From NCBI GenBank assembly GCA_018062205.1, contig JAGOSP010000004.1:198-64197 (forward strand): a stretch of 64,000 nucleotides of DNA, in the 5' to 3' direction. The notes below the pieces were generated by a model. The model was not told the origin of the DNA. It saw nothing but the letters and a program-made list of their open reading frames with translations, and made no database searches. Position numbers and translations under genes: made by a program. Below are positions 2,418-34,491 of this stretch, one piece after another. Each line of letters opens with the position of its first letter. Within the stretch, counting starts at the first letter, position 1. Source of the DNA: Candidatus Moraniibacteriota bacterium (GTDB lineage Bacteria > Patescibacteriota > Minisyncoccia > Moranbacterales > UBA1568).

Positions 2418-3848
2418 ATGAATAACCAAAAAAACATTGTATTTCTTTTTCGTCTCGCCGCTTTTCCGGTGCTTCTTTTTTGTTTTTTTGTTCAGAACGC
2501 TTCTGCGAAAAACTTTGATATCTATGTAGATAAAGGGGTTAAGGCAGAAGGAGACGGAAGTAAAGAATCTCCGTATGAGACTATTAGTCAAGCCCTCACA
2601 GAAGCTTTGTCAAAGAGTGTCGACAAGAGAAATATCTTTGTAGCTAAAGGGGTCTATGATGAATCACTTTTGCTGGGTGACTCTATGTATATCAGCGGAG
2701 CTGGGCGAGGGAAAACGATTATCACAGGAGATGTTTTAGTAGAGAAAAAATCAGGATTGGAAAATCTAACTATCAAGACCGAAAAGCTTGTTGCCATTAT
2801 GGTGAACGGACAGGCTGATTTTTCATTACAGAATATCGAAGTGAGCGGTTTCAGGAAAATTGGCTTACAGGCCATTCCTGGTGAGGGAAAAATTATCCTG
2901 AAGAACATCGCTATTCATGGTAGCAGCGGAAAGGGTTTGTATATACAAAAGGGGCATCGTTTAGAGATATCTGATAGTCGTATATATAAGAATGCTGAAG
3001 AAGGAGTTGATGTGAGAAACAATGTCGATGGCTTCATAAAAAATAATGCCTTGTATGAGAATGGTGAAGGGGGAATGGAAATTATTGTCGGGGATGCTGA
3101 TATGGTTATCAGTAATAATAAATTTACTCAAAATGCTGCAAGTGGTATTGCGGTTCAATTTTATGCGACTGCTAACACGGATGGACAAATTGAAATATCG
3201 AATAATACGATTACGAATAATGGGAAATATGGTCTTGATTGCAATGTTCCGAGTGGAGGCAAGCCTGGCCTGAATTATTGGAAGAGATCGATAAATCTCG
3301 AGAACAATACCATTGAAAGTAATAAAAGAAAGGAAATTAACCCATTTTGTAAGATTATCGATGCAGTGGATGCAAACGAGGAATTAGATAATAAAATCAA
3401 GGAAACAGATCCAGATGACCCAATAAATAACGGCATGAAAAATGAGAAATTTACAGCCGTAAATGTGACTGTTCTTTCAAATGAAGATTTAGAAAAAGAA
3501 AGGATTATCTGGGAGCAAGTAGAGTTGATGGCAACAGGTATTGAAGCGAGAGAAATCGCGATAGATGATCTTGGTGTGAAAATACAGAATCTGAATAAAT
3601 TGAAACTTTTTTTCTTCGGGGTAAAAAAAGAGTATCTTGAAAAATCAAAAGAAGAAATCAGGCAATCAAAAGAAATAATCGAAAATCTTAGGAGTCTTCT
3701 TACTCAAGCGCAAAGCTTTCAGAATCACGAAGAAGTGCAAAGCTTTATACAAGAAGAGGAAGTCGAAATAGTAAAGCATGAGGCTTTCATCCGAGAACAA
3801 GAAGAGGAAAATGGTATTCTCGGGTGGCGAAAATACGTAGCATTCTAG
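2418..3848 (+). CDS. secreted right-handed parallel beta-helix repeat protein (pectate-lyase/NosD-like fold) with C-terminal coiled coil
   Basis: N-terminal signal peptide (FPVLLFCFFVQNASA). The segment DIYVDKGVKAEGDGSKESPYETISQAL is typical of beta-helix (DUF1565-like) proteins. Repeated NN-rich beta-helix rungs follow. The C-terminal quarter is K/E-rich. Confidence 0.6.
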   Translation: MNNQKNIVFLFRLAAFPVLLFCFFVQNASAKNFDIYVDKGVKAEGDGSKESPYETISQALTEALSKSVDKRNIFVAKGVYDESLLLGDSMYISGAGRGKTIITGDVLVEKKSGLENLTIKTEKLVAIMVNGQADFSLQNIEVSGFRKIGLQAIPGEGKIILKNIAIHGSSGKGLYIQKGHRLEISDSRIYKNAEEGVDVRNNVDGFIKNNALYENGEGGMEIIVGDADMVISNNKFTQNAASGIAVQFYATANTDGQIEISNNTITNNGKYGLDCNVPSGGKPGLNYWKRSINLENNTIESNKRKEINPFCKIIDAVDANEELDNKIKETDPDDPINNGMKNEKFTAVNVTVLSNEDLEKERIIWEQVELMATGIEAREIAIDDLGVKIQNLNKLKLFFFGVKKEYLEKSKEEIRQSKEIIENLRSLLTQAQSFQNHEEVQSFIQEEEVEIVKHEAFIREQEEENGILGWRKYVAF

Positions 3849-3960
3849 TCTTTGGAATCCAAAGAGAAACTCTGCCTGGAGCTTTTTGTTTTCTTACGTG
3901 AATGTGGCAGGAAAGCCATTTTGATACGGCACAATTTGATCGATAATATGTCAAGGAGGC

Positions 3961-3988
3961 TTGACATATTTTTTGAATGCCTTACAAT
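3961..3988 (+). promoter_or_regulatory. sigma70-type promoter (TTGACA-16nt-TACAAT) for the XRE regulator gene
   Basis: TTGACA at 3961 and TACAAT at 3983. The upstream in-frame ATG at 3977 lies inside the promoter, which argues for the downstream start at 4019. Confidence 0.5.
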
Positions 3989-4018
3989 AAATATGTAAAG
4001 TCTATTTTACATGTTTAT

Positions 4019-4225
4019 ATGCAAGAGACTGTTGAAAACACCATAGAGAATATGCGAAGAAAGAAAGGGCTCACTCAGGAGGAATTAGCATCGGCTGTGG
4101 ATGTTACACGCCAAACAATTATTGCTCTTGAAAAGGGAAATTATACGCCCTCTGTGCTGCTAGCCCTGAAGATTGCTCGGTTTTTTCGTCTTCCAGTAGA
4201 AAAAATATTCACTCTTAAATTTTGA
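4019..4225 (+). CDS. XRE-family (Cro/C1-type) HTH transcriptional regulator
   Basis: MRRKKGLTQEELASAVDVTRQTIIALEKGNYTPSVLLALKIARFF is a canonical HTH_XRE. The start was moved to M15 of the track ORF because of the promoter position. Confidence 0.75.
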   Translation: MQETVENTIENMRRKKGLTQEELASAVDVTRQTIIALEKGNYTPSVLLALKIARFFRLPVEKIFTLKF

Positions 4226-4645: not shown

Positions 4646-5194
4646 ATGAATAAAATAATTATAGGAATTATGGTCTTAGGAAGTGCTGTCCTCGGAGGCT
4701 GGTGGTATCTGTCTAGTCAGAGAGCAATGGAAGAAGAGTCTTTGATGGAAAAGAAAGTCATGATGGAAAAAAAGACAGACGGAGTCGTCAAAGATGATGT
4801 CATAATGGAAAAGGAAGAAGACGTCATGATGAAGCAGGAAGAGGATACCGTGATGAAAAAAGAAGAGGGCGCTATGATAGTCAGGGGTGGACAGTATACC
4901 TTGTATGATGCATCAAAGGTTGCTTTCGCCAAGGATGGCAAAGTGGTACTTTTCTTCCGTGCTTCCTGGTGTCCGACTTGTCGTTCTTTGGACGGCGATA
5001 TCAAAGCAAATTTGAGTCAGATTCCACAAAATATTTTGATTCTTGATGTTGATTACGATAAGTCAACAGACCTCAAGAAGCAGTATGGAGTCACGTATCA
5101 GCACACCCTGGTGCAGGTGGATGCTTCAGGAAATATGATTACAAAGTGGTCAGGGAGCGCCGGGCTCAGCGAACTGCTTACTCAAGTAAAGTAG
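4646..5194 (+). CDS. membrane-anchored thioredoxin-like protein with Met-rich repeat linker
   Basis: N-terminal TM anchor. The repeats MEKKVMMEKK / VIMEKEEDVMMKQEEDTVMKKEEGAMI are present. A thioredoxin fold carries a WCPTC active site. RBS AAGGAGGTG. Confidence 0.75.
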   Translation: MNKIIIGIMVLGSAVLGGWWYLSSQRAMEEESLMEKKVMMEKKTDGVVKDDVIMEKEEDVMMKQEEDTVMKKEEGAMIVRGGQYTLYDASKVAFAKDGKVVLFFRASWCPTCRSLDGDIKANLSQIPQNILILDVDYDKSTDLKKQYGVTYQHTLVQVDASGNMITKWSGSAGLSELLTQVK

Positions 5195-5277
5195 TTTTGT
5201 TGTTGGGATAAAAGTAGTACACAGTTGGGACAGTTTCTGCAGAGCTGTTCCCTTGAGTAATATTTTTTCAAAATATC

Positions 5278-7041
5278 ATGACTATTCTTCTTGTATTCGC
5301 ATTTCTTTCGGGCGTCGTGACCATTTTTGCCCCATGTATATGGCCGATACTCCCTATTGTTTTGTCAACAGGTGCAACGGGAGGGGAAAGAAAACCGCTT
5401 GGCATTGTCACTGGTCTCGCTGTAAGTTTTTTGTTGGCAACTCTCACACTTGCTTTTGTGGTACAAATTATTCCGTTTGATCCGGAAATACTCCGCTTGC
5501 TCGCTGTCCTCGTGATTGCTCTTTTGGGTTTGACTTTGATTATTCCAGCTCTAGGAAGTCGGCTAGAGGGTCTCGTGAGCCGGCTGACTTCTTTTGGTGG
5601 ACGATTCACACAAAATGGAGGAACTGGTTTTTGGGGTGGCTTTATTACTGGTTTTGCATTGGGGTTAGTTTGGTCACCCTGTGCTGGGCCAATTTTGGCA
5701 ACTATTGCTACTCTTGCAGCGACTCAGGCAGTGAGCTTTCAAGTGGTTTTGGTCACCCTCGCTTTTGTTTCTGGGGTGGCGGTTCCGTTGTTTGTTTTAG
5801 CTCTTCTGGGAAAGAGAGTGCTCACGAGAACAAGAATATTAGCACCCTATACGAAGCGTATTCAACAGGTATTCGGATTGATTATGATTCTGGCAGCCGG
5901 AGCTATTTATACCGGATATGACAAAATACTCCAAACAAAACTCCTAGATACTTTTCCGGGTTATGAGAGTTTTTTGAATGGGTTGGAAAAAAATGATACG
6001 GTGAAAGAGAGGCTTGATGAGTTGAAGAATACTAATGAGAAGCGAGTTTCTCAGAAGAAAGAAGAGTCGAAAGTAAATATACGAAAAGATCTTCCTGAAT
6101 ACGGACAAGCACCCGATTTTGTTGGGATAGCGCATTGGTTGAATACCGATTCAGCACTAACTATGGAACAGTTGCGTGGAAAAGTGGTACTGATTGATTT
6201 TTGGACCTACAGCTGTATTAATTGTATCCGGACACTCCCGCATGTGACCAGTTGGTATGAAAAATACAAAGACCGGGGATTTGTGGTGATTGGAGTACAC
6301 ACACCAGAGTTTGAATTTGAGAAAAAAACGGCCAATGTGGAAAACGCTTTGGAGCGATACAAAATTCATTATCCGGTGGCTCAGGATAATAATTATGGTA
6401 CATGGCAAGCTTATAATAATCGTTATTGGCCAGCGCATTATTTGATTGATGCTGAAGGAAAAATCCGCGACTCGCATTTTGGAGAAGGCAACTATCAGGA
6501 AACAGAACTGGCCATTCAGAGTTTGCTTGAGGAAGCAGGGAGAGACGTAACTCCTAATTCAACAAGCGTGACCATGGACACTCCTGGAAAAAATAAAACC
6601 CCAGAAACATATTTGGGAAGTGATCGTATGGAGCGATTTTTATCACCTGAACGAGTGACTGGTGAGAAGCAAGTCTTCACGACACCTCCTATTCTCCGGA
6701 AGCACGATTTTGCCTATAGTGGATCTTGGAAAGTTGAATCAGAAAGGGCTTTGGCTTCCAGTAAATCAACACTCACGCTTCGTTTCGAGGGGAAGAAAGT
6801 GTTTTTGGTTCTTGCTCCACCTGAGAATACTTTATCTGGATCTGGAAGTGTCAAAGTTTTTTTGGATCAGAAGCTGATACCCAAAGAAGTGTCCGGTAAG
6901 GATGTTGTGGATGGAAAGGTGACACTAGATGCAGAAAGACTTTACGAGCTTTTTGATGGGAGAGAAATGACCGAAGAACATCTGCTTCATTTAGAATTTG
7001 AAACACCAGGGACCGCGGTGTACGCATTTACTTTTTCTTAA
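5278..7041 (+). CDS. ccdA: CcdA/DsbD-like transmembrane domain fused to TlpA/ResA-like thioredoxin domain (thiol-disulfide electron conduit)
   Basis: TM1 FAPCIWP and TM4 SPCAGP carry the CcdA cysteines. The periplasmic redoxin domain has WTYSCINC (CxxC). A C-terminal extra domain of about 170 aa is present. Confidence 0.8.
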   Translation: MTILLVFAFLSGVVTIFAPCIWPILPIVLSTGATGGERKPLGIVTGLAVSFLLATLTLAFVVQIIPFDPEILRLLAVLVIALLGLTLIIPALGSRLEGLVSRLTSFGGRFTQNGGTGFWGGFITGFALGLVWSPCAGPILATIATLAATQAVSFQVVLVTLAFVSGVAVPLFVLALLGKRVLTRTRILAPYTKRIQQVFGLIMILAAGAIYTGYDKILQTKLLDTFPGYESFLNGLEKNDTVKERLDELKNTNEKRVSQKKEESKVNIRKDLPEYGQAPDFVGIAHWLNTDSALTMEQLRGKVVLIDFWTYSCINCIRTLPHVTSWYEKYKDRGFVVIGVHTPEFEFEKKTANVENALERYKIHYPVAQDNNYGTWQAYNNRYWPAHYLIDAEGKIRDSHFGEGNYQETELAIQSLLEEAGRDVTPNSTSVTMDTPGKNKTPETYLGSDRMERFLSPERVTGEKQVFTTPPILRKHDFAYSGSWKVESERALASSKSTLTLRFEGKKVFLVLAPPENTLSGSGSVKVFLDQKLIPKEVSGKDVVDGKVTLDAERLYELFDGREMTEEHLLHLEFETPGTAVYAFTFS

Positions 7042-7087
7042 AAATAGACTGTTTTAGTCGAGTCATGAGAAATTTTACACAAAATAT

Positions 7088-8335
7088 ATGAAAATATCAC
7101 AGAGAATATGGTTGGTGATATTGGGATTTTCTCTCGCTGTAGGCTTGGTATGGTATGGGAAGTATTCTCAGAAGGTGAGCGATATCAAGATTCCCGGTAT
7201 ACCAAAACAGAATTGTTTGGAGCATAATCAAGAAAAACATATGAAAAAAACACAAGAAGAATTAAGTCAGTATCAGCGTGCCTACTTTGCTGGGGGGTGT
7301 TTCTGGTGCACAGAAAGTGATCTGCAGAAGGCTTCTGGAGTAGTCGAGGTTGTATCGGGGTATGCGGGTGGAAGGGTAGTGAATCCGACATATAGTGATG
7401 TGACGAGTGAGAAGAGCGGACATCGAGAAGCGGTGGAAATCTATTATGATGGAAAGGTAACGAGCTATGAAAATCTCGTGAAGTATCATTTGATGCATAT
7501 TGATCCGACGGATGCAGGCGGGCAGTTTTATGATCGCGGGGAGAGTTATCAGGCAGTGATTTTCTATCGTTCTGAGGAGGAGCGACTTGTAGTCGAGCGA
7601 ACGATACAGGAATTAGACAAAGCAAAAATTTTTGAGAAACCAGTCGCTGTGCGAGTTTTGCCGTATACAAATTTTTATACTGCGGAAGAGTATCACCAGA
7701 ATTATGCTGAGGAAAATACCATTAAGTATTGTGCTTATCGAGAGTCGAGCGGGCGAGATACTTTTTTGAAAAAATATTTTGAAGGGAAAACGTGGGATGA
7801 ATTACTCAGGAAGGGTACGACACAAAAAATAAACGAACCTGTTTCTTTGCAAAGTGATGATATGATTCCCGGAAAACTTGATTTTTCGCAGTATGTAAAA
7901 CCAAGCCAAGCAGAATTGCAGGCTAATCTCACCCCGCTTGAATATGAGGTGACACAAGAAGATGGGACCGAAAGACCATTTCATAATGCCTATAACGAAA
8001 ACCATGCTTCTGGAATTTACGTTGATATTGTCAGCGGCGAACCACTTTTTTCATCAAGCGACAAATATGAGAGTGGCACGGGGTGGCCAAGTTTTGTGAA
8101 GCCAATTGATAACCGGTTTATTGTGGAAAAAGTAGATGCTGGTTTTTTGAGTACGCGCACAGAGATACGGAGTAAATACGGAGATAATCATCTTGGACAT
8201 GTGTTTCCCGATGGGCCAAAGGATAGAGGTGGGATGCGCTACTGTATGAATTCCGCGGCACTTCATTTTATTCCGAAAGAATCCATGGAAAAAGAAGGAT
8301 ACGGAGATTTTCTTTCACAAGTGGATACTCAATAA
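7088..8335 (+). CDS. msrAB: membrane-anchored bifunctional peptide methionine sulfoxide reductase MsrA-MsrB
   Basis: N-terminal TM. The MsrA motif is GCFWC ([13 protein letters not shown]). The MsrB motifs are RYCMNSAAL and GHVFPDGP. Confidence 0.9.
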
Positions 8336-8355
8336 TTGAATTAATTCAAGAATGT

Positions 8356-8727
8356 ATGAATAAATTTCAAGAAGTTCTCAAAATGAGCGGTGTACCGGTA
8401 ATCCTTGCGTCACTGTGTTGTCTTTCACCGGTTATTCTGGTGCTACTGGGAATCTCCTCGGTGAGTTTTGCTTCTTCGCTGAGTGATACTCTGTATGGTG
8501 AGTATAAGTGGGTATTTCGTACGATTGGGTTATTGGCGCTCTTAGGATCACTGGCATACTATTTGTATCGACAGAAAGGAATCTGCTCTCTGGATGCTGC
8601 GAAACGTCGTCGGAATGAGATTATGAATTACATCGCGCTAACCCTTGTTGTTGGAGTATTCGGATATCTTTTTTTCTTGTACGTGGTTGTACACTATCTT
8701 GGTGTCTGGCTTTCAATTTGGAAATAA
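8356..8727 (+). CDS. small membrane protein with intramembrane Cys-Cys motif (MerT-like TM1)
   Basis: VPVILASLCCLSPVILVLLG resembles the CC-containing first helix of MerT-type thiol/metal transporters. Three TM segments. Confidence 0.45.
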   Translation: MNKFQEVLKMSGVPVILASLCCLSPVILVLLGISSVSFASSLSDTLYGEYKWVFRTIGLLALLGSLAYYLYRQKGICSLDAAKRRRNEIMNYIALTLVVGVFGYLFFLYVVVHYLGVWLSIWK

Positions 8728-8903: not shown

Positions 8904-10040
8904 TCAGTGCGTTGTCATGCGGGAAACATTGGGAGGATTGACTCCTTTTAGAATACTCCACATTCGTTGGAACGTTATCTCGCCGGAATTAATTGCTGCA
9001 TCCTCTTCCGGCGTAGACAAAATAAACTCACCCATGACTTCCATTCCACCAACGATACCTTGGAGGCCAGCAGACCTCGAGTAGCGATAATTTCGCGGGA
9101 CGAGGTAGAATGTGACTTGCGATTTTTCGTGAATTGCGATGAGATTGGCCGAAGCGGCATTGCCCACCGTGTTACTCCACTCACGCATGCGTCCGATGGT
9201 GGCGCGAATCGTGTTTTCGCGGTTACCGGTGATACGGAAGGTGGTCAGCGGGTAATGCTGCGTGTCTACAACAAGCACTGACGGGGAAATATCATCAGCT
9301 GGTGTGCCGATGGATTCATTGGCCTTTTGCTCGATTCTCCTGGCTGCGTGTTGGATAGGGAAAAGCCCATGACCAGCAGGACTCATGAACGCCTGAAAAT
9401 GAAGGTGCTCTTCGATGCTGGCTCCAGCACCAACTCCGTTGTAAAAGCAGATCCATTCGGGTAGTTTGACGGCGAGATCATAGAGATCTGTGACTATCCG
9501 GGTCATCTTCCCCAATTCCTCTTCGGGTTTCCCATGCCATGATTGCGGTGCGTGTTCGGTGGAGGCGATTGTCATATGTGTCGGCATGAAGGGGAATGGG
9601 TTGCACAGTGCCGCATAGCTATTCCCGTTTACATCGAAGAGAAAGTAAAACTGCACTCCTCTTGATTGCCAACCAACGTTTTCGTGACAGATAAAACATT
9701 TGGTGGAACGGGTGGTTTTAGTTGCGACTCCCTCGGGCGGAGTAACTCGTCCGTTTCCTTTGAAACGAAGGCGGCGATTGGGATTATATTGCCCAATAAA
9801 GAAGGCATCGTCGCCTCCATGGCACTGGAAGTAGCGCACGGCAGTCAGGTCGTCAATGATGAATCCACTGTCCATTTGTTGTGCATGCAGGAGTCTCAGG
9901 GCATCCGAAAGCGGATGCTTGTTGAGTATTGCCTGAAGTTCGGCACGGTTCCGTAGATAGATGGAATCAGTCCATCTCCCCATCGTAGAACGCCCATCGG
10001 GATTTTGATAATCCGGAAGCAGGACAATTTTTGTAGTCAT
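8904..10040 (-). CDS. HIT-superfamily nucleotide-sugar phosphorylase-like protein (GDP-L-galactose/GDP-D-glucose phosphorylase GDPGP1/VTC2-like)
   Basis: HIT variant motif HLHFQAF (HxHxQ, diagnostic of the GDPGP1/VTC2 branch). An upstream segment (CNPFPFMPTHM) is analogous to the VTC2 substrate loop. The gene is GC-rich (about 52%) relative to its neighbours. Confidence 0.55.
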   Translation of the reverse strand: MTTKIVLLPDYQNPDGRSTMGRWTDSIYLRNRAELQAILNKHPLSDALRLLHAQQMDSGFIIDDLTAVRYFQCHGGDDAFFIGQYNPNRRLRFKGNGRVTPPEGVATKTTRSTKCFICHENVGWQSRGVQFYFLFDVNGNSYAALCNPFPFMPTHMTIASTEHAPQSWHGKPEEELGKMTRIVTDLYDLAVKLPEWICFYNGVGAGASIEEHLHFQAFMSPAGHGLFPIQHAARRIEQKANESIGTPADDISPSVLVVDTQHYPLTTFRITGNRENTIRATIGRMREWSNTVGNAASANLIAIHEKSQVTFYLVPRNYRYSRSAGLQGIVGGMEVMGEFILSTPEEDAAINSGEITFQRMWSILKGVNPPNVSRMTTH

Positions 10041-11226: not shown

Positions 11227-11652
11227 TTATTCTACAATAAGTGTTCCCCACTGGCCTTTTGCTCTATGGCCAGGTTTTGAGCAGTAGAAGACGAATTCGC
11301 CTGTTTTGTTAGCGGTAAACTCAATGACAACCTCTTCGTTCAGCGGGAGCTCTTTCTTGACGCCGAATTCATCTATCACAAAGTCATGCATGCCCTTGGT
11401 ATTGGTGGCTTTGATGTGTATGGTATCGCCTGCTTTCACGCGCATTTCTTTGAGCGAAAACCAGACGCCAGTTTCGTCGTAATAGGCAGTAGTGGAAAAT
11501 TCTTTGACCGACTCTGATATTTCCGTTGAGGATTTTTCCTGAGACATGCCATTTTTTTCAGTCTTTGTCGTCGTTGGTTTTTCATTTTGAAAAAAGAAAT
11601 AGCCAGCGAACGCAATACCAACGATAAGTATCAGTCCAATTATTTTTCCCAT
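11227..11652 (-). CDS. membrane-anchored cupredoxin (plastocyanin/azurin-like blue copper protein)
   Basis: N-terminal TM. Type-1 Cu ligand pattern: H (GMHDF), then C and H in FYCSKPGH. The axial position appears to be Gln (GQWG) instead of Met. Confidence 0.65.
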   Translation of the reverse strand: MGKIIGLILIVGIAFAGYFFFQNEKPTTTKTEKNGMSQEKSSTEISESVKEFSTTAYYDETGVWFSLKEMRVKAGDTIHIKATNTKGMHDFVIDEFGVKKELPLNEEVVIEFTANKTGEFVFYCSKPGHRAKGQWGTLIVE

Positions 11653-13113: not shown

Positions 13114-13905
13114 ATGGATATTGGTCAGTATGAAATTCTGAGAAAAATCGGAGAGGGAAGCTTTGGGCGAACCTTCGAAGGTCGGCACCACATTCTTGGT
13201 ATACCAGCCTGCATTAAACAGGAGCGAACTGGAGACCCTGTCTATCAGAGAATGTTTCGGGAGGAAGCGGAACTGCTCGCAAAGGTGCATCATATCTCGC
13301 TTCCGGCATTTCGCGATTATTTTGAGCTTCCGGATTTTGGTCAGGTGCTCGTGATGTCATATATTTCCGGCGAAAATCTTCGGAAACGGGTTGATCGGGA
13401 AGGCGCGATTGATGATGAGCATATCGCATGGATTCTTCAGCGTACACTCGACGCTTTATCATATCTTCATTTTCAGTGCATCGTGCACTGCGATGTGAAG
13501 CCAGAAAATCTGATTCTTCATTTGGAGGAACATAATGTTGTCTTGGTAGATTTCGGATTGGGAGTGATTCACTCCGATGCAAAGACGCTGGCTAAGGGGG
13601 GAACAGAAGCCTATATGCCTCCAGAATTCGGAAATGGGTTACCGCCAATCCCGGCATCAGATATTTATTCGATTGGGAAAACCGCAGTGTTTCTTTCGGG
13701 TGGCAATCCGATGACTGGGGCGCTTCCAAAAGACATGCACCCGCTGTTTGCAGAGTGCATACGAGCGATGATTCGTAAGGATCCATTCGCTCGGCCGCAG
13801 AATGCGCGCGATGTCAGTCGCCGCATAACAGAAATCCGTCGCCAAATTTTTGGTCGAACGGAAACAACCGAGTTGTTTAAACTTCGTGAGAGGAGTATAT
13901 CATGA
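13114..13905 (+). CDS. Hanks-type Ser/Thr protein kinase (kinase domain only)
   Basis: Gly loop GEGSFG. A Lys-containing ACIK segment, catalytic loop HCDVKPEN, and DFG. RBS GGAGG 5 nt upstream. Its stop overlaps the next gene start (ATGA). Confidence 0.85.
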   Translation: MDIGQYEILRKIGEGSFGRTFEGRHHILGIPACIKQERTGDPVYQRMFREEAELLAKVHHISLPAFRDYFELPDFGQVLVMSYISGENLRKRVDREGAIDDEHIAWILQRTLDALSYLHFQCIVHCDVKPENLILHLEEHNVVLVDFGLGVIHSDAKTLAKGGTEAYMPPEFGNGLPPIPASDIYSIGKTAVFLSGGNPMTGALPKDMHPLFAECIRAMIRKDPFARPQNARDVSRRITEIRRQIFGRTETTELFKLRERSIS

Positions 13906-14942
13906 GTGGCGCATTTGGATGGGCACGGGCAAATTCAGCGGATGCTGGCACGAGAGTGCATGGCCCGGACAATTTCGCGGGAGCCAAAGGAGCATATGGC
14001 GGTGGGGCGAAACGAGTCGATATCGGATTTGATTCGAATGATGGGAGAAGTCGTAAGATCGACGCATTCGCAAACAAGCTCGGACCAAAAACGATTCCGA
14101 ACGGGAAGAGTACGCTTTCGAGTACGGCAGCCAATGTTGTCATGGTAGTGCTCGATGTGACAGGGTCGATGCAGGAGTGGCCGCAAGAGATTTTCAGGCG
14201 GCTCCCGCTTCTCTATACCGATCTTGTCAGGTATCTCGGATCGGATGACTTGGAAGTCCTCTTCATCGCCCATGGTGATGCGAGTGGATCAGACCGGTAT
14301 CCGGTGCAGGTAGGACGATTCGCACGTGGCGCGGAACTCGATGCAGTCCTTGCTTCGCTGGAACGCGAGGGCGGCGGGAGTGGCCGCGAATCACAACGTG
14401 AATCACAAGAGCTCATTGCTTACTACATGGTTGAGCGTATCGATACGACGTCGGCACAGAATGTCTTTGTCTTCTTCGTCACCGATGAAGCTGGCTATGA
14501 CACAGTGACTGCTTCGCAAGTTGATCAGCTTCTGGGAGTCCCGATGAATCATGAGCTTATCAGGACAGCGGATGTCTTTGCGAAGCTTTCGATTACGGCG
14601 GATGTGTATGCAGTGGTATGCGATACGAAGTCGTATGACAGTCCTCTGGCTCCAACCTGGTGGAAGAAAATGCTTGGTTCGGAACAAGTACTTCTGCTCG
14701 ATGATGCACGGCGGATTGTCGATGTATTGCTTGGGGTGATGGCTGGAAAAGTGGGGAAAGATCATGAATTTGATCAAGATCTCACAAGGCGTCAGGTCGG
14801 TATGCCACATGGGTATGCCAATATCGCAAATGTGCACAAGACGCTGGCAATTGTCCGAAGAGGTGGGAAAACAAGGCTTCTCCTGCCCCCGGATGTATCA
14901 GGGTCGCATAGCAAGAAGACGCGCTCCTTGCTGGATGATTGA
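13902..14942 (+). CDS. von Willebrand factor A (vWA) domain protein (TerY-like) with Gly-rich N-terminus
   Basis: MIDAS motif VVLDVTGSM. Translationally coupled to the kinase. RBS AGGAG. The gene is GC-rich. Confidence 0.75.
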   Translation: MSGAFGWARANSADAGTRVHGPDNFAGAKGAYGGGAKRVDIGFDSNDGRSRKIDAFANKLGPKTIPNGKSTLSSTAANVVMVVLDVTGSMQEWPQEIFRRLPLLYTDLVRYLGSDDLEVLFIAHGDASGSDRYPVQVGRFARGAELDAVLASLEREGGGSGRESQRESQELIAYYMVERIDTTSAQNVFVFFVTDEAGYDTVTASQVDQLLGVPMNHELIRTADVFAKLSITADVYAVVCDTKSYDSPLAPTWWKKMLGSEQVLLLDDARRIVDVLLGVMAGKVGKDHEFDQDLTRRQVGMPHGYANIANVHKTLAIVRRGGKTRLLLPPDVSGSHSKKTRSLLDD

Positions 14943-15012
14943 AAGAAATGAAAACGCGGCACTCCCTGGAATCTCAGGGGTGCCGCTTTTTTTGCCTACC
15001 AATTATGCGTGT

Positions 15013-21494: not shown

Positions 21495-22519
21495 AGAAAA
21501 AAGATGAATCATGTCTGACGGGACAATGCCCGACACCGGTTGAACGCCCTTTGCATACGATTAAATTAAGTGAGGGGAGTGGTGGTCGTGAAATGCAAGC
21601 ACTTATTGGAACGCTCCGCGGACAGCTCGGCCCGACGAATAACTGGAAACACAGCGGGGATGATGGTGCGACCTTCTCTCTTGGAGATCAGCAATTGGTG
21701 TTTACCACGGATGCTTATGTGGTAACGCCGATTTTTTTTCCGGGAGGAAATATTGGGAAGATTGCATTTTGCGGTACGGTAAATGATTTAGCAGTGATGG
21801 GTGCTCGTCCGATTGGAATTTCTCTTTCACTGATTTTAGAGGAGGGATTTTCCAAGGAAGAATTTACGACCATTATCGACACCATCGGGAAACTGTCACG
21901 GGAAACTGGAATTCCAGTGGTGACTGGTGATACTAAGGTCGTTGAACGTGGGGGTATTGATAAAATCATCATCAATACGAGTGGCGTCGGATTGGCAGTG
22001 CGAGTACTCGAAGCACCACTCGAAGTGGGAGATGCAATAATTGTGTCTGGTGGTCTGGGCGAACATGGAGCAGCGCTACTTGCTCGACGCTTTGAACTGG
22101 AAACAACCCTGCAAACCGACAGCAAACCACTGCACGAAGAATTAGCAGTGATTGGTGACTATATCAAACAGGCGAAAGACATTACTCGGGGTGGGCTTGC
22201 CGCTATTCTGAATGAGCTTTCAGAGAAAAATTCGGTAGCTCTTACGGTTGAAGAAGCAGTTGTTCCATTGCATGACGAAGTTCGGGCTTTAACGGAGATG
22301 CTTGGTATTGATGTCTATAGTCTGGCGAGCGAAGGGCGCTTCGTTTGTATTGTGGCACCAGAACAGGAAAAGCGTGTACTTGAGATACTCCGCACCTTTA
22401 ATCCTTCGGCAGTGCAGATTGGAAGAGTGTCTGCTGGACGAGGAGTTTCCGTCCAGACAGTATATGGTAAGAAAATTCTCTCAATGCCTTCAGGGAATAT
22501 TGTTCCGCGGATTTGCTAG
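21491..22519 (+). CDS. hypE: [NiFe] hydrogenase maturation factor HypE
   Basis: AIR-synthase-like fold. N-terminal SGGREMQALI. C-terminal PRIC. Confidence 0.9.
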   Translation: MKKKDESCLTGQCPTPVERPLHTIKLSEGSGGREMQALIGTLRGQLGPTNNWKHSGDDGATFSLGDQQLVFTTDAYVVTPIFFPGGNIGKIAFCGTVNDLAVMGARPIGISLSLILEEGFSKEEFTTIIDTIGKLSRETGIPVVTGDTKVVERGGIDKIIINTSGVGLAVRVLEAPLEVGDAIIVSGGLGEHGAALLARRFELETTLQTDSKPLHEELAVIGDYIKQAKDITRGGLAAILNELSEKNSVALTVEEAVVPLHDEVRALTEMLGIDVYSLASEGRFVCIVAPEQEKRVLEILRTFNPSAVQIGRVSAGRGVSVQTVYGKKILSMPSGNIVPRIC

Positions 22520-24661
22520 ATATGCGGCGATTTGACCAAAACTGATGCCGCCATCACCAGAAGGAATTTCTTTGTTGACGAGAACGCCTTTGGAAAGAAA
22601 GTATTCAGTCATGATACGGTTATAAGCGCAGCCTCCGGCCCACACAATGGGCTTTTTTGTTTGGATGGCAATGGAATAAAGACCAATGGCTAGATATTTT
22701 TGTGCGGTGGCAGCAAGGCGGTATTTGTCCTCGTGTAAGTGTTCGATGAGGTAATGAAAGAGGGGAGTGGTTCGCAACACAGAATCTTTGATGACGGGGG
22801 TGATATCAAATGGCTCGGTAGAATATGCTTCTAGAAGCATGGCTGGTCGGCCATCATAAGTCCTCTCATCGCAGAGATTAAGGAGGGCAGCAGTCGCATC
22901 TAAAATTCGGCCGCAACTGGAGGTGAGAGGCGCATTGAATTTTTCGACAAATTGTTTTTCGAGGAGGGTGAGTTCGGAGGAAGAAAAGTGAGAATTGAGG
23001 AATGGACTACTCTCTTCAGGGGAAAGAAAGGACCGAAGAAGCGCATAGAGCATGCGGTGAGGAAATCGTGCGGCAGCATCACCACCAAGTTGCGGGTGGA
23101 GTTCGAGATGTCCAATGCGTGTGTGATTTTCAAATACCTCTCCACCCCAGAGCGTGCCATCATCTCCATAGCCAAGTCCGTCGCAAATGATAGCTGCAAA
23201 ATCGCTTAGCTGATGCTCGGCAGCAGCTGCATATGCATGGGCTCGGTGGTGTTGAATGGGAACGAGTGGAATGCTCAGTTGATTGGCAAGGTCGTGTCCA
23301 TAGAGAGACGTTTGATAATTTGGATGTGCATCACAAAGAATAGCCTGGGGCATGATATGAGCGTAAGAGAGGAAGCGATCAAGAGCAGCTCGATAGCGAT
23401 TGAAAGTGTCGGGATGAGTGGTGTTACCGATGTGCTGGGAGACAATAACACGCCCCTGTCCGTCATAGAGCGCGAATGTATTGTTCATTTCGGCACCAAG
23501 AGCGAGAAGGGGAGTTGTTATTGGCGAATGAATAATGATGGATTGAGGAACAAAGCCGCGGCTGCGTCGGATAAGTAAGGGTGTCTTGGCAATAACTTTG
23601 ACAACAGAATCATCGGTAGCATTGATAATCTCTCGATTATGGTCGAGTACCAGAGGGACAAATTGTTCTTCTCGCGTGGTGGTGAGTGGCGCGTGAGCCA
23701 GATTGGAAGAGGTGCAGATAAGCGGATAGGGATAATGTTCAAAGAGAAGGATATGGAGCGCAGTCGAAGCAAGCATAATGCCGAGAGTGTCGAGCTCGCT
23801 CACTTCTGGGGATTGGGTATTTTTTTTCACAAGAACGATAGGACGTTTTGGCGAAAGAAGTTGTTGCTCTTCTTCGAGAGTTGGACGAGAAATCATCTGC
23901 GCCATAGCGAGGTCTCGACAGAGAACTGCATAGGGTTTATGGATTCTTCCGGTAATGAGATTGAGCTTGTTTTTGGTTTTCTTCTGGGTATTACAGAATA
24001 AATGAAATCCACCAACTCCTTTGATGGCTACAACTTCTCCTTGAGAGAGCGCCTGCCCAACATGGTGGAGTATGTCTTGTTCAGCTGTTTTGGTTGAAGC
24101 AGCGCCATCTTGAAAGAGGGTGAGTTTTGGTCCACATGTGTGACAGGCGATGGTTTGAGCGTGGAATCTTCGACTTGTTGGATTGCGATACTCGTCACTA
24201 CAGTCAGGGCAGAGAGGAAAAATATGCATGGAGGTTGTTGCTCGGTCATAGGGACTTGATTTCGCCATAGTGAAGCGCGGACCGCAAAGAGTGCAGGTGA
24301 GAAAGAAATAATGGTGTCGGCGATTTTCTGGATTGCCAAGTTCTAAGAGGCAATCATCACACAAGAAAAAATCTGGTGGAATTTCAGAGAAACCTACGCC
24401 GGTGCTTGCGCGTATAGTGAAATCAGTACAGTGTTCCTTGGAGACTTCTTTCTGAATGGTATCAATACGCATGTGAGATGGAAGTTGATCAAGAATATTT
24501 TGAAAGGCTACGGTATCATTGACGACTACCACAACACCTTCTCCGGTGTTTTGCACGAAACCAAAAAGTTTCTCTTTGATACAGGCATTATAAATAAAAG
24601 GTCGGAATCCAACTCCCTGAACGATACCTTTAATAAGAAATTGGTGGAAAAGATGATTCAT
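22490..24661 (-). CDS. hypF: carbamoyltransferase HypF
   Basis: N-terminal acylphosphatase domain (VQGVGFRPF). Two Zn-finger-like CxxC pairs. YrdC and Kae1-like domains. Its 3' end overlaps hypE by 30 nt. Confidence 0.9.
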   Translation of the reverse strand: MNHLFHQFLIKGIVQGVGFRPFIYNACIKEKLFGFVQNTGEGVVVVVNDTVAFQNILDQLPSHMRIDTIQKEVSKEHCTDFTIRASTGVGFSEIPPDFFLCDDCLLELGNPENRRHHYFFLTCTLCGPRFTMAKSSPYDRATTSMHIFPLCPDCSDEYRNPTSRRFHAQTIACHTCGPKLTLFQDGAASTKTAEQDILHHVGQALSQGEVVAIKGVGGFHLFCNTQKKTKNKLNLITGRIHKPYAVLCRDLAMAQMISRPTLEEEQQLLSPKRPIVLVKKNTQSPEVSELDTLGIMLASTALHILLFEHYPYPLICTSSNLAHAPLTTTREEQFVPLVLDHNREIINATDDSVVKVIAKTPLLIRRSRGFVPQSIIIHSPITTPLLALGAEMNNTFALYDGQGRVIVSQHIGNTTHPDTFNRYRAALDRFLSYAHIMPQAILCDAHPNYQTSLYGHDLANQLSIPLVPIQHHRAHAYAAAAEHQLSDFAAIICDGLGYGDDGTLWGGEVFENHTRIGHLELHPQLGGDAAARFPHRMLYALLRSFLSPEESSPFLNSHFSSSELTLLEKQFVEKFNAPLTSSCGRILDATAALLNLCDERTYDGRPAMLLEAYSTEPFDITPVIKDSVLRTTPLFHYLIEHLHEDKYRLAATAQKYLAIGLYSIAIQTKKPIVWAGGCAYNRIMTEYFLSKGVLVNKEIPSGDGGISFGQIAAYLANPRNNIP

Positions 24662-32238: not shown

Positions 32239-34491
32239 ATGATTACTCAAAAATTTCCTATCACAGGTATACACTGCGCCAGCTGCGCGGCTATCATCAC
32301 GAAGCATTTGACAAGAATGGATGGCGTTAATGATGTAGACGTAAACATTGCAACCGAACAAGCGAATATTGTTTTTGAGGAAAATCGAGTGAATCCAGAA
32401 TCGATGAATCAGATATTGGAACCTCTTGGTTATTCTCTTGTATTCGCAACCGATTCAGATAAAGAGATTGTTGCGGAAGAAAAAGATGAATTGTTTGTGG
32501 CGGAGCAAGCGAAAACATATTTTGTTTTACCACTCGCGATTGTTTTTTTTGTTCTGATGTTGTGGGAGATTGCCGCTCCAAGATACTTTTTTGTACCGAA
32601 TTTTCCGTTTCCGATGCAATTTTGGAGTATCTTTTCGCTCGCGATAGCAACTATGGTTTTCTTTTGGGCTGGAAGGCCGTTTTTATCTGGAGTGTGGCGT
32701 TTTATGCGATTCGGAGTAGCGGATATGAATACCCTGATTGGCATGGGAACATCAGTTGCATACTTTTATAGCACACTCATTGTGCTTCTTCCTTCTTTCC
32801 CGCTCTATTTCCGTCTACCAGAAGAAACATATTTTGACGTTGTAATCGTGGTTATTGGTTTTGTCACGTTAGGGAAATACCTTGAAGCTCGAGCTAAAGC
32901 AAAAACAGGTGATGCTATTGCTGAGCTTCTTCATCTTCAAGCAAAAACAGCGTTGGTAATTCGCAATGATGAAGAAAAAGAAATACCTATTTCTTCGGTA
33001 GTACCCGGTGATTTAGTTCGAGTTAAACCAGCGGGGAGAATCCCTGTTGATGGTAGAGTTATTGATGGATTTTCATATATAGATGAATCGATGCTCTCTG
33101 GAGAACCGATGCCAGTGGAAAAAAAGAAAGATGATTTAGTTCACGCTGGCACACTTAATACAACTGGTACATTTGTATTTTGCGTCACTGAGGTAGGCCA
33201 GACGACTTTGTTGGCACGTATCATTCGTATGGTTGAAGAGGCTCAAGGAAGTAAAGCTCCTATACAAGCGCTAGTTGATCGAATATCCGCTGTTTTTGTA
33301 CCAACGGTTTTGGGTTTTGCGGTCGTGATGGTCTGCCTCTGGCTCATTTTTGGAACACCTTTGTACGGTTTTTCCCAGGCTCTTTCTTTCGCGCTTCTAG
33401 CGTTTGTTGGCATACTCGTGATCGCTTGTCCTTGTGCGCTTGGATTAGCAACACCAACTTCGATTATTGTTGGAGTTGGCAAAGGGGCTCAAGAAGGGAT
33501 TCTGGTGAGAGATGCTGCGACACTTGAACAGTTGTCTCGGGCGCAAGTAATTGTTATGGATAAGACTGGAACGCTCACGAAAGGCGAACCGGAATTGGTT
33601 GCTATTCGTACTTCATTTGGGTATGAAGAAGAAAAAATTCTTGCTCTTGCGATTGCACTGGAAAATCATTCAGAACATCCGTTAGCGAAGGCTTTCATGG
33701 ATTTTGCCGCAAACAAGAATGTTGCTATTTCGTCGGTAGATAATTTTGAAGCCCAAAGAGGGAAGGGTGTTTCTGGTACCATATCGGGTCAGTCATACTA
33801 TCTAGGAAGCGTTGGATGGACGAAAGAACATGGATTATTAATGGATGAGGATACCATTAACCAGGAGGCTCGTGAAGGGAAGGTTCCTCTTATCCTCTGT
33901 TCTGATAAAGAAATCCTTGGAATATTTTTTGTTGCAGATCGCGTAAAACCAGAAGCGCATCAGTCAGTAGCTGAATTACAGAAGCTTGGTTTGCGGGTGA
34001 TAATGCTCACGGGAGATCATAGGCAAGTTGCTCAGTATATCGGAGAACAAGTAGGCATTCACGAAATTATCGCGGAAGCATTACCAGATGATAAGTTCGC
34101 AGTGATTAAGCGTCTACAGGGAGAAGGAAATATAGTGGTTATGGTGGGGGACGGCATTAATGATGCTCCAGCATTAGCTCAGGCAAATATTGGCATTGCT
34201 TTGGCAACGGGTACCGATGCGGCAATTGAATCGGCGGGTATTACTTTGTTGCATGGAGATATAGGGAAGTTGGTGAAAGCTGTTCGACTGTCACGGATGA
34301 CACTTTCTGGTATCAAGCAAAATCTTTTTCTTGCCTTTGTGTTTAATGTTGTTGGTATTCCACTCGCTGGCGGAATTTTTTATCCTCTGTTTGGCTGGTT
34401 CTTGAGTCCGGCATTCGCGGGGCTTGCGATGGCTTTCTCAAGTGTTACTGTGGTAAGTAATGCACTTCGTCTTAAAACGAAAAAATTGTAA
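32239..34491 (+). CDS. copA: copper-translocating P1B-type ATPase
   Basis: N-terminal HMA GIHCASCA. Motifs CPC (ACPCALGLATP), DKTGTLT and GDGINDAPAL. Confidence 0.9.
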   Translation: MITQKFPITGIHCASCAAIITKHLTRMDGVNDVDVNIATEQANIVFEENRVNPESMNQILEPLGYSLVFATDSDKEIVAEEKDELFVAEQAKTYFVLPLAIVFFVLMLWEIAAPRYFFVPNFPFPMQFWSIFSLAIATMVFFWAGRPFLSGVWRFMRFGVADMNTLIGMGTSVAYFYSTLIVLLPSFPLYFRLPEETYFDVVIVVIGFVTLGKYLEARAKAKTGDAIAELLHLQAKTALVIRNDEEKEIPISSVVPGDLVRVKPAGRIPVDGRVIDGFSYIDESMLSGEPMPVEKKKDDLVHAGTLNTTGTFVFCVTEVGQTTLLARIIRMVEEAQGSKAPIQALVDRISAVFVPTVLGFAVVMVCLWLIFGTPLYGFSQALSFALLAFVGILVIACPCALGLATPTSIIVGVGKGAQEGILVRDAATLEQLSRAQVIVMDKTGTLTKGEPELVAIRTSFGYEEEKILALAIALENHSEHPLAKAFMDFAANKNVAISSVDNFEAQRGKGVSGTISGQSYYLGSVGWTKEHGLLMDEDTINQEAREGKVPLILCSDKEILGIFFVADRVKPEAHQSVAELQKLGLRVIMLTGDHRQVAQYIGEQVGIHEIIAEALPDDKFAVIKRLQGEGNIVVMVGDGINDAPALAQANIGIALATGTDAAIESAGITLLHGDIGKLVKAVRLSRMTLSGIKQNLFLAFVFNVVGIPLAGGIFYPLFGWFLSPAFAGLAMAFSSVTVVSNALRLKTKKL

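Follow-up and report, generated by a model that had tools for sequence, protein, structure and literature searches.

What does a bacterium gain from placing a methionine-rich thioredoxin beside a membrane electron transporter and a methionine sulfoxide reductase? This question is raised by a 64,000-nt stretch of DNA (the window) from a Candidatus Moranbacteria bacterium (Patescibacteria/candidate phyla radiation, CPR), which encodes a membrane-anchored thioredoxin with a Met-rich linker (g1), a CcdA-TlpA protein (g2), an MsrA-MsrB methionine sulfoxide reductase (g3) and a small MerT-like membrane protein (g4). We put the probability at roughly 55% that the operon containing these genes serves to repair oxidized methionines, and to buffer against their oxidation, at the outer side of the membrane. 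In this explanation, an electron pathway from CcdA through thioredoxin to MsrAB is very likely, the direction of flow being taken by analogy from the pneumococcal CcdA-Etrx-MsrAB2 system, and a function of the g1 linker (hereafter, the tail) as a methionine sink is a tentative proposal. Cytoplasmic reducing equivalents would cross the membrane via the two-cysteine CcdA domain of g2 and would pass to two tethered reductants, the TlpA-like domain of g2 (CINC) and the g1 thioredoxin (WCPTC), which in turn would regenerate the membrane-anchored MsrA-MsrB. The g1 tail would act as an MrpX-like sacrificial sink for hypochlorous acid (HOCl), H2O2 or chloramines, and MsrAB would re-reduce the tail sulfoxides with electrons that this very protein delivers. 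Overall, the cell surface would carry a catalytic scavenger of oxidants that is driven by NADPH, and an XRE-family repressor and a membrane protein with four transmembrane (TM) segments would control the operon through GTAAAG-N4-CTTTAC palindromes.

Domain content and topology of the encoded proteins

Domains were assigned by Pfam and NCBIfam models with curated cutoffs. The g1 protein matched the thioredoxin family PF00085 (E=6e-11, 42.6 bits against a cutoff of 23.5) with the WCPTC active site at residues 108-112 (nt 4967-4981), and Met-rich strings were found within residues 24-82, confirming the TM-anchored WCPTC thioredoxin with a Met-rich linker that had been reported in a preliminary description of this DNA. 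The best matches of g1 in Foldseek and in the Protein Data Bank (PDB) were classical thioredoxins. A fold of the Etrx, TlpA, ResA or CcmG type was rejected, since the matches to AhpC-TSA, Redoxin and Thioredoxin_8 were all below cutoff, and there was no TlpA, ResA or Etrx chain among the PDB sequence and fold matches listed for g1. As judged from its sequence and predicted fold, g1 is a classical thioredoxin. A search of a 90%-clustered protein collection returned 1058 homologues, the closest of which were from Candidatus Moranbacteria and other Patescibacteria, and relatives of g1 were present in at least 541 species-representative genomes.

The g2 protein contains a DsbD_TM domain (PF02683, 39.3 bits against a cutoff of 27.1, E=5.5e-10), AhpC-TSA and Redoxin matches (E=2.5e-14 and 7e-13, respectively) and Thioredoxin_10 (PF17991, E=9e-30). 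Both domains of the CcdA-TlpA fusion described previously were found, but a third, C-terminal domain (PF17991) had been missed, and this domain gives g2 the architecture of DipZ, with CcdA, a thioredoxin-like domain and PF17991 in one chain. PDB profile searches matched g2 to Mycobacterium tuberculosis DipZ (Rv2874; 2hyx, 5cyy) with E=2.5e-65, and g2 residues 1-227 to CcdA (5vkv, E=1.4e-10). The TlpA-like domain matched ResA, YkuV and 2yp6/4hqz, which is annotated as a thioredoxin family protein. To our knowledge, M. tuberculosis DipZ has no established physiological substrate, whereas the genomic partners of g2 (the Met-rich thioredoxin always and MsrAB often) suggest one. More distantly, the g2 ectodomain matched the thioredoxin-like domain of plant SOQ1, for which a preprint reports lumenal methionine sulfoxide reductase activity and proposes that the electrons are taken from CcdA.

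The g3 protein gave strong Pfam matches to PMSR (E=3e-53) and SelR (E=9e-45). Scores for the MsrA domain were 180.6 bits with PF01625 and 154.9 bits with TIGR00401 (cutoff 108.1), and that for the MsrB domain (PF01641 family) was 190.7 bits with TIGR00357 (cutoff 113). Both domains are above the curated cutoffs and are preceded by an N-terminal TM segment, in agreement with the membrane-anchored MsrA-MsrB fusion recognized earlier. The MsrB domain lacks the Zn-binding CxxC pairs as well as the resolving Cys (TGWPSF), and by its sequence is a 1-Cys, Zn-less form. The match of g3 to the PRK14018 model had E=5.8e-106 and was under the cutoff of that model.

The topology was argued from hydropathy, the positive-inside pattern, fusions and the lipobox. 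Near the N-terminus of both g1 and g3 is one hydrophobic helix with Lys/Arg in front of it, and all MsrAB proteins examined have an N-terminal anchor. In g2, six helices were read from the sequence, with the basic loops (GGERK, SRLEGLVSRLTSFGGR and GKRVLTRTRILAPYTKR) on the same side and the TlpA-like domain after the sixth helix, and in CcdA-MsrAB fusions of relatives MsrAB takes the place of TlpA. One relative (L138; L-numbers denote loci of relatives) encodes a MerT-MsrA-MsrB fusion, in which MsrAB is at the C-terminus of a three-helix MerT-like protein with a strongly basic TM2-TM3 loop; since this loop must be cytoplasmic, MsrAB should face outward. In addition, a canonical lipobox was found in 29 of 149 representatives of the wider thioredoxin family (designated by P-numbers). 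Overall, these features support the location of all catalytic domains outside the membrane, the orientation expected in the preliminary description.

Gene order in relatives and extent of the operon

Synteny was counted in 80 species-level genomes, with about 20 kb of context per genome; Msr adjacency was scored in the 71 loci with enough flanking sequence, and absence of Msr refers to the locus of the thioredoxin-DipZ pair, not to the whole genome. CcdA follows the Met-rich thioredoxin in 80 of 80 genomes, the TlpA domain is present in 69 of them and PF17991 in 51, and Msr is directly adjacent in 31 of 71 loci (44%). All eight loci in which CcdA is without TlpA have MsrAB downstream, and in seven of these CcdA-MsrA-MsrB is a single polypeptide of ~600 aa. 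The Met-rich thioredoxin is the only thioredoxin fold at the seven fusion loci, and this context strongly suggests that it is the protein that shuttles electrons from CcdA to MsrAB.

In Streptococcus pneumoniae, the electron route from membrane CcdA to surface Etrx to MsrAB has been shown experimentally for the CcdA1/2-Etrx1/2-MsrAB2 system (PMC3914529). The operon in the window resembles CcdA1-Etrx1-MsrAB2 and CcdA2-Etrx2 in its co-operonic order of CcdA, tethered surface thioredoxin folds and surface MsrAB, and in having two reductants for two Msr domains. However, the pneumococcal Etrx proteins are TlpA/ResA-type lipoproteins, whereas g1 is a classical thioredoxin with a TM anchor and belongs to a family with 20%-Met tails; furthermore, CcdA is here fused to TlpA and PF17991, and the XRE regulator with its membrane protein and the MerT-like gene are extra. 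The parallel to ccdA-etrx-msrAB systems that had been drawn for this locus holds for the architecture, but the TlpA-type reductant is the middle domain of g2 and g1 is not of the Etrx/TlpA fold. Neisseria PilB (Trx-MsrA-MsrB, reduced by DsbD) is likewise an extracytoplasmic MsrAB that depends on a DsbD/CcdA-type membrane reductant. In PilB the thioredoxin is fused, whereas here it is a separate gene, and in the seven relatives it is CcdA that is the fusion partner of MsrAB.

The four genes had been described as co-directional with short gaps, and their coordinates and domains are retained here (Table 1), the gaps being 83, 46 and 20 nt between g1 and g2, g2 and g3, and g3 and g4, respectively. 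However, the co-directional unit begins further upstream, with a helix-turn-helix (HTH) gene and a gene for a 123-aa membrane protein that are syntenic in nearly all relatives: the HTH gene was found upstream in 68 of 80 genomes and the ~120-aa membrane protein in 71 of 80, the remainder being mostly contig ends. The operon comprises six genes, not four.

Across Patescibacteria, three modules recombine: the HTH regulator with the membrane protein, the Met-rich thioredoxin with the DipZ-type CcdA-TlpA protein, and MsrAB with the MerT-like protein. In the gap between g1 and g2 (5195-5277), an imperfect GC-rich hairpin (GGGACAG...CTGTTCCC) with a T-rich stretch behind it was read by eye. A terminator scan did not call this hairpin, which could make the genes after it less strongly expressed than the thioredoxin gene.

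Table 1. Positions of the operon genes, their domains and the upstream control elements in the window
Feature	Position (nt)	Strand	Remarks
Operator O1	3948-3967		Perfect palindrome ATGTCAAG-GAGG-CTTGACAT; overlaps -35 hexamer
Sigma-70-like promoter	3961-3988	+	TTGACA-16-TACAAT; 11/12 consensus matches
XRE-family HTH regulator	3977-4225 (ORF)	+	Probable start ATG 4019, 68 aa
Operator O2	3993-4012		ATGTAAAG-TCTA-TTTTACAT; just 3' of -10 hexamer
Membrane protein, 123 aa	4222-4593	+	Four hydrophobic segments; overlaps HTH stop by 4 nt
g1, thioredoxin	4646-5194	+	182 aa; from open reading frame (ORF) list
g1, N-terminal membrane anchor	4655-4714	+	Residues 4-23 by hydropathy; AlphaFold2 helix at residues 3-38
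g1, Met- and Lys/Glu-rich linker (tail)	4715-4885	+	Residues 24-80
g1, thioredoxin domain	4886-5191	+	AlphaFold2 predicted local distance difference test (pLDDT) >90; classical beta-alpha order
g2, CcdA-TlpA	5278-7041	+	587 aa; from ORF list
g2, CcdA membrane domain	5278-5952	+	Cys20 in APC, Cys135 in SPC
g2, TlpA/ResA-like domain	6106-6501	+	CINC at 6214-6225
g2, C-terminal PF17991 domain	6598-7035	+	By Pfam
g3, MsrA-MsrB	7088-8335	+	415 aa; from ORF list
g3, TM anchor	7100-7159	+	
g3, MsrA domain	7280-7732	+	GCFWC at residues 70-74
g3, MsrB domain	7928-8275	+	RYC at residues 384-386
g4, MerT-like	8356-8727	+	123 aa; from ORF list

The Met-rich tail of the thioredoxin

Residues 24-82 of g1 contain 9 Met among 59 residues (P(>=9)=5.6e-6 at a background of 2.2%), and g1 is the only real ORF of the window with at least six Met in any 30 residues. 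A general Met-richness of linkers in this organism was ruled out, as the juxtamembrane K/E-rich linkers of g2, g3 and a nearby cupredoxin have 0, 1 and 1 Met, respectively, and no other real ORF of the window is Met-rich. In the best 120 of the g1 homologues, the tail has a median of 61 residues and 20.6% Met, compared with ~1% Met in the thioredoxin domain. The composition of the tail, calculated from 181 non-identical relatives, was M 19.7%, K 15.9%, E 14.2%, A 11.8% and D 9.3%, with 39.8% charged residues, 0.1% His, 0% Cys and 1.4% Leu, Ile and Phe combined, and its length ranged from 33 to 89 aa (median 61). With 15% Met, the tail of the window is among the poorer copies. A lineage-specific insertion, for which absence of the segment from homologues had been the suggested check, was ruled out, as essentially every close homologue has the Met-rich segment, at a median Met content of 20%.

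The tail is less conserved in sequence than the thioredoxin domain (46% versus 82% identity), and the residues best kept are Met and Lys. Substitution of Met by Leu or Ile is rare, although a single nucleotide change would suffice for either; this observation is soft because the aligned sequence is of low complexity. At least 180 sequences, some with as little as 44% identity, keep a Met content of ~20%. The tail is predicted to be disordered, based on pLDDT values <50 at residues 39-77 in the AlphaFold2 model, and it evolves by slippage, as shown by a 24-nt unit repeated 2.2 times in tandem at 4791-4842. The repeat consists of an MM doublet every 6-7 residues, and Met-Met spacings of 2, 3 and 4 (MxM, MxxM and MxxxM) occur in the tails at 0.16, 0.04 and 0.14 of expectation, respectively. 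Canonical Cu(I) Mets motifs were ruled out by this depletion together with the His content of 0.1%.

A described protein with a comparable composition is MrpX of Azospira suillum, which is exported, contains 20% Met and 44% charged residues, is oxidized by HOCl and is recycled by periplasmic YedY1/MsrP (PMC4436054). In both the MrpX-YedY1(MsrP)-YedZ1(MsrQ) system and the present operon, an exported segment with ~20% Met and ~40-44% charged residues is encoded together with a methionine sulfoxide reductase. However, MrpX is a free periplasmic MXKDX peptide whereas the tail is fused to a thioredoxin and has the MM doublet repeat, the reductase of MrpX is the molybdoenzyme MsrP fed by MsrQ whereas MsrAB is thiol-based and fed by CcdA and thioredoxin, and the regulator is SigF/NrsF in the one case and XRE-type in the other. 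Membership in the MXKDX/MrpX sequence family (TIGR02953) was rejected: a synthetic MXKDX repeat scored 83.5 bits, five CPR linkers gave no match at E<=10, and nine full proteins with the tail gave no match to TIGR02953. By composition, export and co-operonic MsrAB, the tail is predicted to belong to an MrpX-like class, which is a functional class and not a sequence family. The MrpX/MsrP precedent also means that a Met-rich sink is not as undescribed as had been claimed for this locus; what is new is the fusion of such a candidate sink to the thioredoxin of a CcdA/MsrAB system.

Other arrangements of the same domain were also seen in the wider family. Lipoproteins with two to three tandem copies of the g1-type thioredoxin domain (P0241-P0248 and P0261) have inter-domain linkers that are Met-rich in some (P0261) and T/S/Q/E-rich in others. 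Met-rich 'DG..V.M.DG' repeats precede the thioredoxin domain in P0266, P0349, P0353 and P0383.

The MerT-like protein beside MsrAB

The preliminary description had likened g4, a small CC-motif protein, to the first TM segment of MerT. The motif is present, but the match to MerT (PF02411) spans residues 11-106 and not TM1 alone (E=1.4e-7, 32.0 bits against a cutoff of 32.9). With the NCBIfam MerT model the score was 35.1 against a cutoff of 150. Many of the g4 homologues have a precomputed PF02411 match, some of them weak. A PDB profile search gave only a marginal match to MerF (E=0.7), and the AlphaFold2 model of g4 is of low confidence (mean pLDDT 62). There were 1062 homologues, and the best 120 of these are 70-100% identical. 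Invariant residues are Cys21-Cys22 in TM1 (SLCCLSPV; 20 of 20 sequences), Cys77 (KGIC) in the basic cytoplasmic loop, and His113. The protein is like MerT and MerF in its three helices, CCxxP in TM1, basic cytoplasmic loop after TM2 and size. It differs in having Cys77 as the single Cys of the cytoplasmic TM2-TM3 loop instead of the second Cys pair of MerT, in its sub-threshold scores, in the lack of mer genes nearby and in its association with MsrAB. In essence, g4 shows one of four characteristics of MerT (CCxxP in TM1) and lacks the other three (a score above cutoff, the second cytoplasmic Cys and a mer context).

In a metagenome sample with 68 determinable loci, a g4-type gene was found on the same strand and directly beside Msr in 51 loci (75%), upstream in 34 and downstream in 17. 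In three independent long-contig contexts, the MerT-like gene immediately follows MsrAB with no thioredoxin or CcdA nearby, and no merR, merP or merA was seen in these three contexts. Together with the fusion in L138, these counts show that the gene is no chance neighbor; within the operon, no other gene is as well conserved or as closely linked to Msr. A literature search for MerT-like proteins in connection with Msr found nothing linking them. The MerT-like protein looks like an obligate partner of MsrAB, although any specific role that we infer for it, unlike the domains, synteny and fusion, is doubtful.

At some loci MsrAB has other neighbors. In L047, L057, L080 and L083, MsrAB is followed by a DedA/VTT-domain membrane protein, and the next gene in L047, L057 (7600-9681) and L083 (3599-5700) encodes an RclA/MerA-like flavoprotein disulfide reductase; L080 ends before this position. 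These DedA-type loci have no MerT-like gene beside MsrAB, and L047 has one ~9 kb away. The DedA/VTT protein and the RclA/MerA-like reductase may be an alternative partner set of MsrAB. RclA and HOSCN reductase are among the sub-threshold NCBIfam matches of the flavoprotein, a weak hint at an oxidant-defense theme.

Regulator, membrane protein and promoter

The promoter listed in Table 1 is the best promoter-like site between 3800 and 9000, judged by consensus match only. The pattern ATGTMAAGNNNNYTTKACAT has two matches in 64 kb, operators O1 and O2, compared with 0.02 expected. The operator palindrome precedes the HTH gene at a constant spacing in 38 of 53 related loci (~1.6 expected), and a second copy of the operator is also present in L001, L005, L007, L008 and L012. 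The regulator matched HTH_3 (PF01381) with E=1.9e-14 and 53.8 bits against a cutoff of 23. Its homologues are 64-70 aa in length and align to residues 15-82 of the ORF, and the longer ORF includes the -10 box; for both reasons, translation probably begins at ATG 4019. Taken together, this arrangement suggests that the operon is probably autorepressed by the XRE protein. In six relatives, GTAAAG-N4-CTTTAC also occurs directly upstream of MsrAB or thioredoxin (L085 ~4341, L102 ~3742, L105 ~4331, L111 ~4328, L125 ~3289-3326 and L133 ~3459-3497), which implies a putative second regulated promoter at these loci; the window is without one at this place.

The 123-aa membrane protein has no Pfam match. 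Two of its relatives gave weak matches to DUF6773 (E=0.005 and 0.38), one of them also to DUF2178 (E=0.11), all below cutoff. The conserved residues include W31, M32, M38, D62-E63-R64, R74, H95, D98, W100 and M108. According to the positive-inside rule, W31, M32, M38, H95, D98 and W100 would face outward and the invariant D62-E63-R64 would be cytoplasmic, and based on this arrangement of conserved residues, the membrane protein is plausibly a sensor that is the partner of the regulator. The operator is observed directly, whereas the signal that we infer for the sensor would be an oxidant or a metal.

The same HTH and membrane protein pair precedes MsrA-MsrB fused to a DM13 domain (533-555 aa) in L085 (4387-5994), L102, L105, L107 and L111, with a MerT-like gene after the fusion and no thioredoxin or CcdA in the locus. 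The presence of the pair ahead of these DM13-MsrAB-MerT loci indicates that the regulator is tied to surface methionine redox genes generally.

Evidence against the repair reading and alternative explanations

Several observations weigh against a dedicated methionine repair and buffering system. No Msr gene is adjacent at 56% of the thioredoxin-CcdA loci, and the tail Met count does not differ with and without adjacent Msr (14 versus 13, p=0.29). The failure of the tail to match TIGR02953 leaves its likeness to MrpX compositional only. In the wider thioredoxin family, 64 of 149 representatives are Met-rich, and 85 have T/S/Q/E-rich linkers that are not. Fusions of the same thioredoxin family with a cupredoxin and with a CHRD-like domain exist, and copper genes are located near some loci. 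Finally, the MerT-like gene is kept in the CcdA-MsrAB fusion loci L038, L069, L116 and L133, where CcdA and MsrAB are already joined, which argues that it is not a simple substitute for CcdA. Given the fusions and the copper genes, the g1 thioredoxin may have more than one client at the surface, among them the Cys ligands of cuproproteins, and it does not look like an exclusive reductant of Msr.

Copper handling, an unlikely alternative, would have the tail bind Cu(I) or Ag(I) and the thioredoxin-DipZ pair act in a Scs/TlpA-like manner, reducing the Cys ligands of cuproproteins or guarding against copper-catalyzed thiol damage, with MsrAB as an accessory in some lineages. CueO, Ctr1, PcoC and CusF have Met-rich segments that bind Cu(I), and ScoI and CoxB are reduced by TlpA before they receive metal. 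Salmonella ScsABCD and Bradyrhizobium TlpA resemble the present operon in their DsbD-like reductant, tethered thioredoxin folds, involvement in envelope stress and links to cuproproteins. In favor of copper, besides the missing Msr at 56% of the loci, a cupredoxin-thioredoxin fusion of the same family (P0345, in L169 at 396-1256) is followed by CcdA, and the CHRD-like domain, which brings its own Met-rich tail, is fused to thioredoxin in L061 (2028-2948) and P0352. A membrane-anchored cupredoxin is encoded convergently 2.5 kb downstream of the operon in the window (11227-11652, minus strand) and likewise in L008, L042 and L089, and within 10 kb of the thioredoxin-DipZ pair a minority of loci encode CopM-type metallochaperones (L028, L059 and L075), a multicopper oxidase (L074, 2729-4285, minus strand) or heavy-metal P-type ATPases (8 of 80 genomes). 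However, the depleted MxM, MxxM and MxxxM spacings, the near-absence of His (with 0% Cys) and 16% Lys, which is unfavorable for cation binding, all argue against a canonical copper site in the tail, and Cu(I) binding, which the preliminary description had offered as its own alternative, is disfavored by the Met spacing. The conserved core contains no copper gene, whereas Msr is fused to CcdA in seven genomes, and in comparison with ScsABCD there is no ScsA and no ScsC-type (DsbA-like) component.

If the tail were an inert spacer that holds a general extracytoplasmic reductant off the membrane, its Met would be a by-product of purine-rich repeat expansion. The variable length (33-89 aa), the low identity relative to the domain, the slippage of the 24-nt unit and the T/S/Q/E-rich linkers of the wider family would fit such a spacer. 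We nevertheless consider it improbable: ATG is a single codon that is not derivable from E/K-coding purine repeats, ~20% Met is kept in at least 180 sequences while Leu, Ile and Phe are excluded, and the other linkers of the operon have 0-1 Met. Equally improbable in our view is a tail that recruits substrates or MsrAB instead of scavenging oxidants, either by Met residues that bind unfolded or oxidized secreted proteins (compare the M domain of SRP54 and chloroplast Hsp21) or as a redox switch in which Met oxidation changes how far the thioredoxin reaches or how active it is. A disordered Met-rich segment tethered beside a reductase, and a Met count independent of Msr adjacency, would be expected of a client-binding tail, and a signaling role of Met oxidation has its precedent in SOQ1/LCNP, a thioredoxin system related to DipZ; however, the tail has no amphipathic periodicity, its i+3 and i+4 Met pairs are depleted, and its very high charge density speaks against a hydrophobic binding surface. 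The weakest explanation, that g4 is a true MerT importer of mercury or another heavy metal that merely lies beside the repair genes, is very improbable despite the full-length Pfam/NCBIfam MerT match, the CCxxP motif and the weak MerF match, given the scores under cutoff in both databases (32.0 versus 32.9; 35 versus 150), the single cytoplasmic Cys, the three long-contig contexts without merR, merP or merA, the RclA/MerA-like reductases of other loci that are not beside a MerT-like gene, and the same-strand Msr neighbor in 51 of 68 loci and the MsrAB fusion in L138.

Other features of the loci and the window

In L015 (876-1469), L014 (5306-5866) and L018 (9293-9904), an extra gene separates those of the membrane protein and the thioredoxin. 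Its product is a CHRD-like protein that combines a TM anchor and a Met-rich tail with a domain containing PAHIHVGACPTPG...NVHKS...VSCGDIV; the match to Pfam CHRD had only E=0.012. A heavy-metal P-type ATPase (HMA and E1-E2 ATPase domains) is encoded in the window at 32239-34491 (plus strand), 24 kb from the operon, and a full-length HypF carbamoyltransferase, a [NiFe]-hydrogenase maturation factor, at 22490-24661 (minus strand). The G+C content is 49-54% at 500-2000, 9000-10000 and 13500-15000, compared with 34-45% in the adjoining stretches, and these high-GC stretches may be acquired segments. A 415-aa ORF at 613-1860 and a 346-aa ORF at 13902-14942 have no Pfam match, and a DUF4922 protein is encoded at 8904-10040 (minus strand).

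Discussion

Overall, the operon joins two known kinds of system, the CcdA-thioredoxin-MsrAB type of surface repair and a sacrificial Met-rich sink, the two being united partly within a single protein, and adds to them two undescribed elements, a regulator pair with its operator and a partnership of MsrAB with a MerT-like protein. Compared with the preliminary description as a whole, the pathway is upheld and the sink is plausible, whereas the boundaries of the operon and the family assignments are corrected and the novelty was overstated in view of MrpX. A literature search on Msr and thioredoxin in Patescibacteria/CPR found nothing relevant.

A broader combination of ideas, which we regard as rather doubtful, would make the MerT-like protein a thiol relay to MsrAB and the Met-rich thioredoxin a self-recycling scavenger in an envelope oxidant-defense regulon. 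As a thiol relay, the tri-cysteine MerT-like protein would pass electrons or a thiophilic ligand from a cytoplasmic partner to surface MsrAB, the MerT scaffold having been repurposed from the hand-off of Hg(II) to servicing a repair enzyme; such a relay would account for the conservation of the MerT-like protein, its linkage to Msr and its single fusion to MsrAB. In the self-recycling scavenger, sink and reductant would be parts of one chain, and with an XRE repressor and a membrane sensor lined by Met and His it would make up a compact regulon.

Patescibacteria have tiny genomes, and a module kept in more than 500 species is likely to be important for their surface-attached lifestyle. The locus shows how CPR bacteria could bring electrons to the surface for methionine repair, and it makes MsrAB a candidate physiological client for the DipZ class of membrane reductases. 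The operator, the XRE regulator and the membrane protein form a compact system that is suited to finding the signal sensed, be it an oxidant or a metal, and the coupling of the MerT-like protein to MsrAB points to an unrecognized component of extracytoplasmic methionine sulfoxide reduction.

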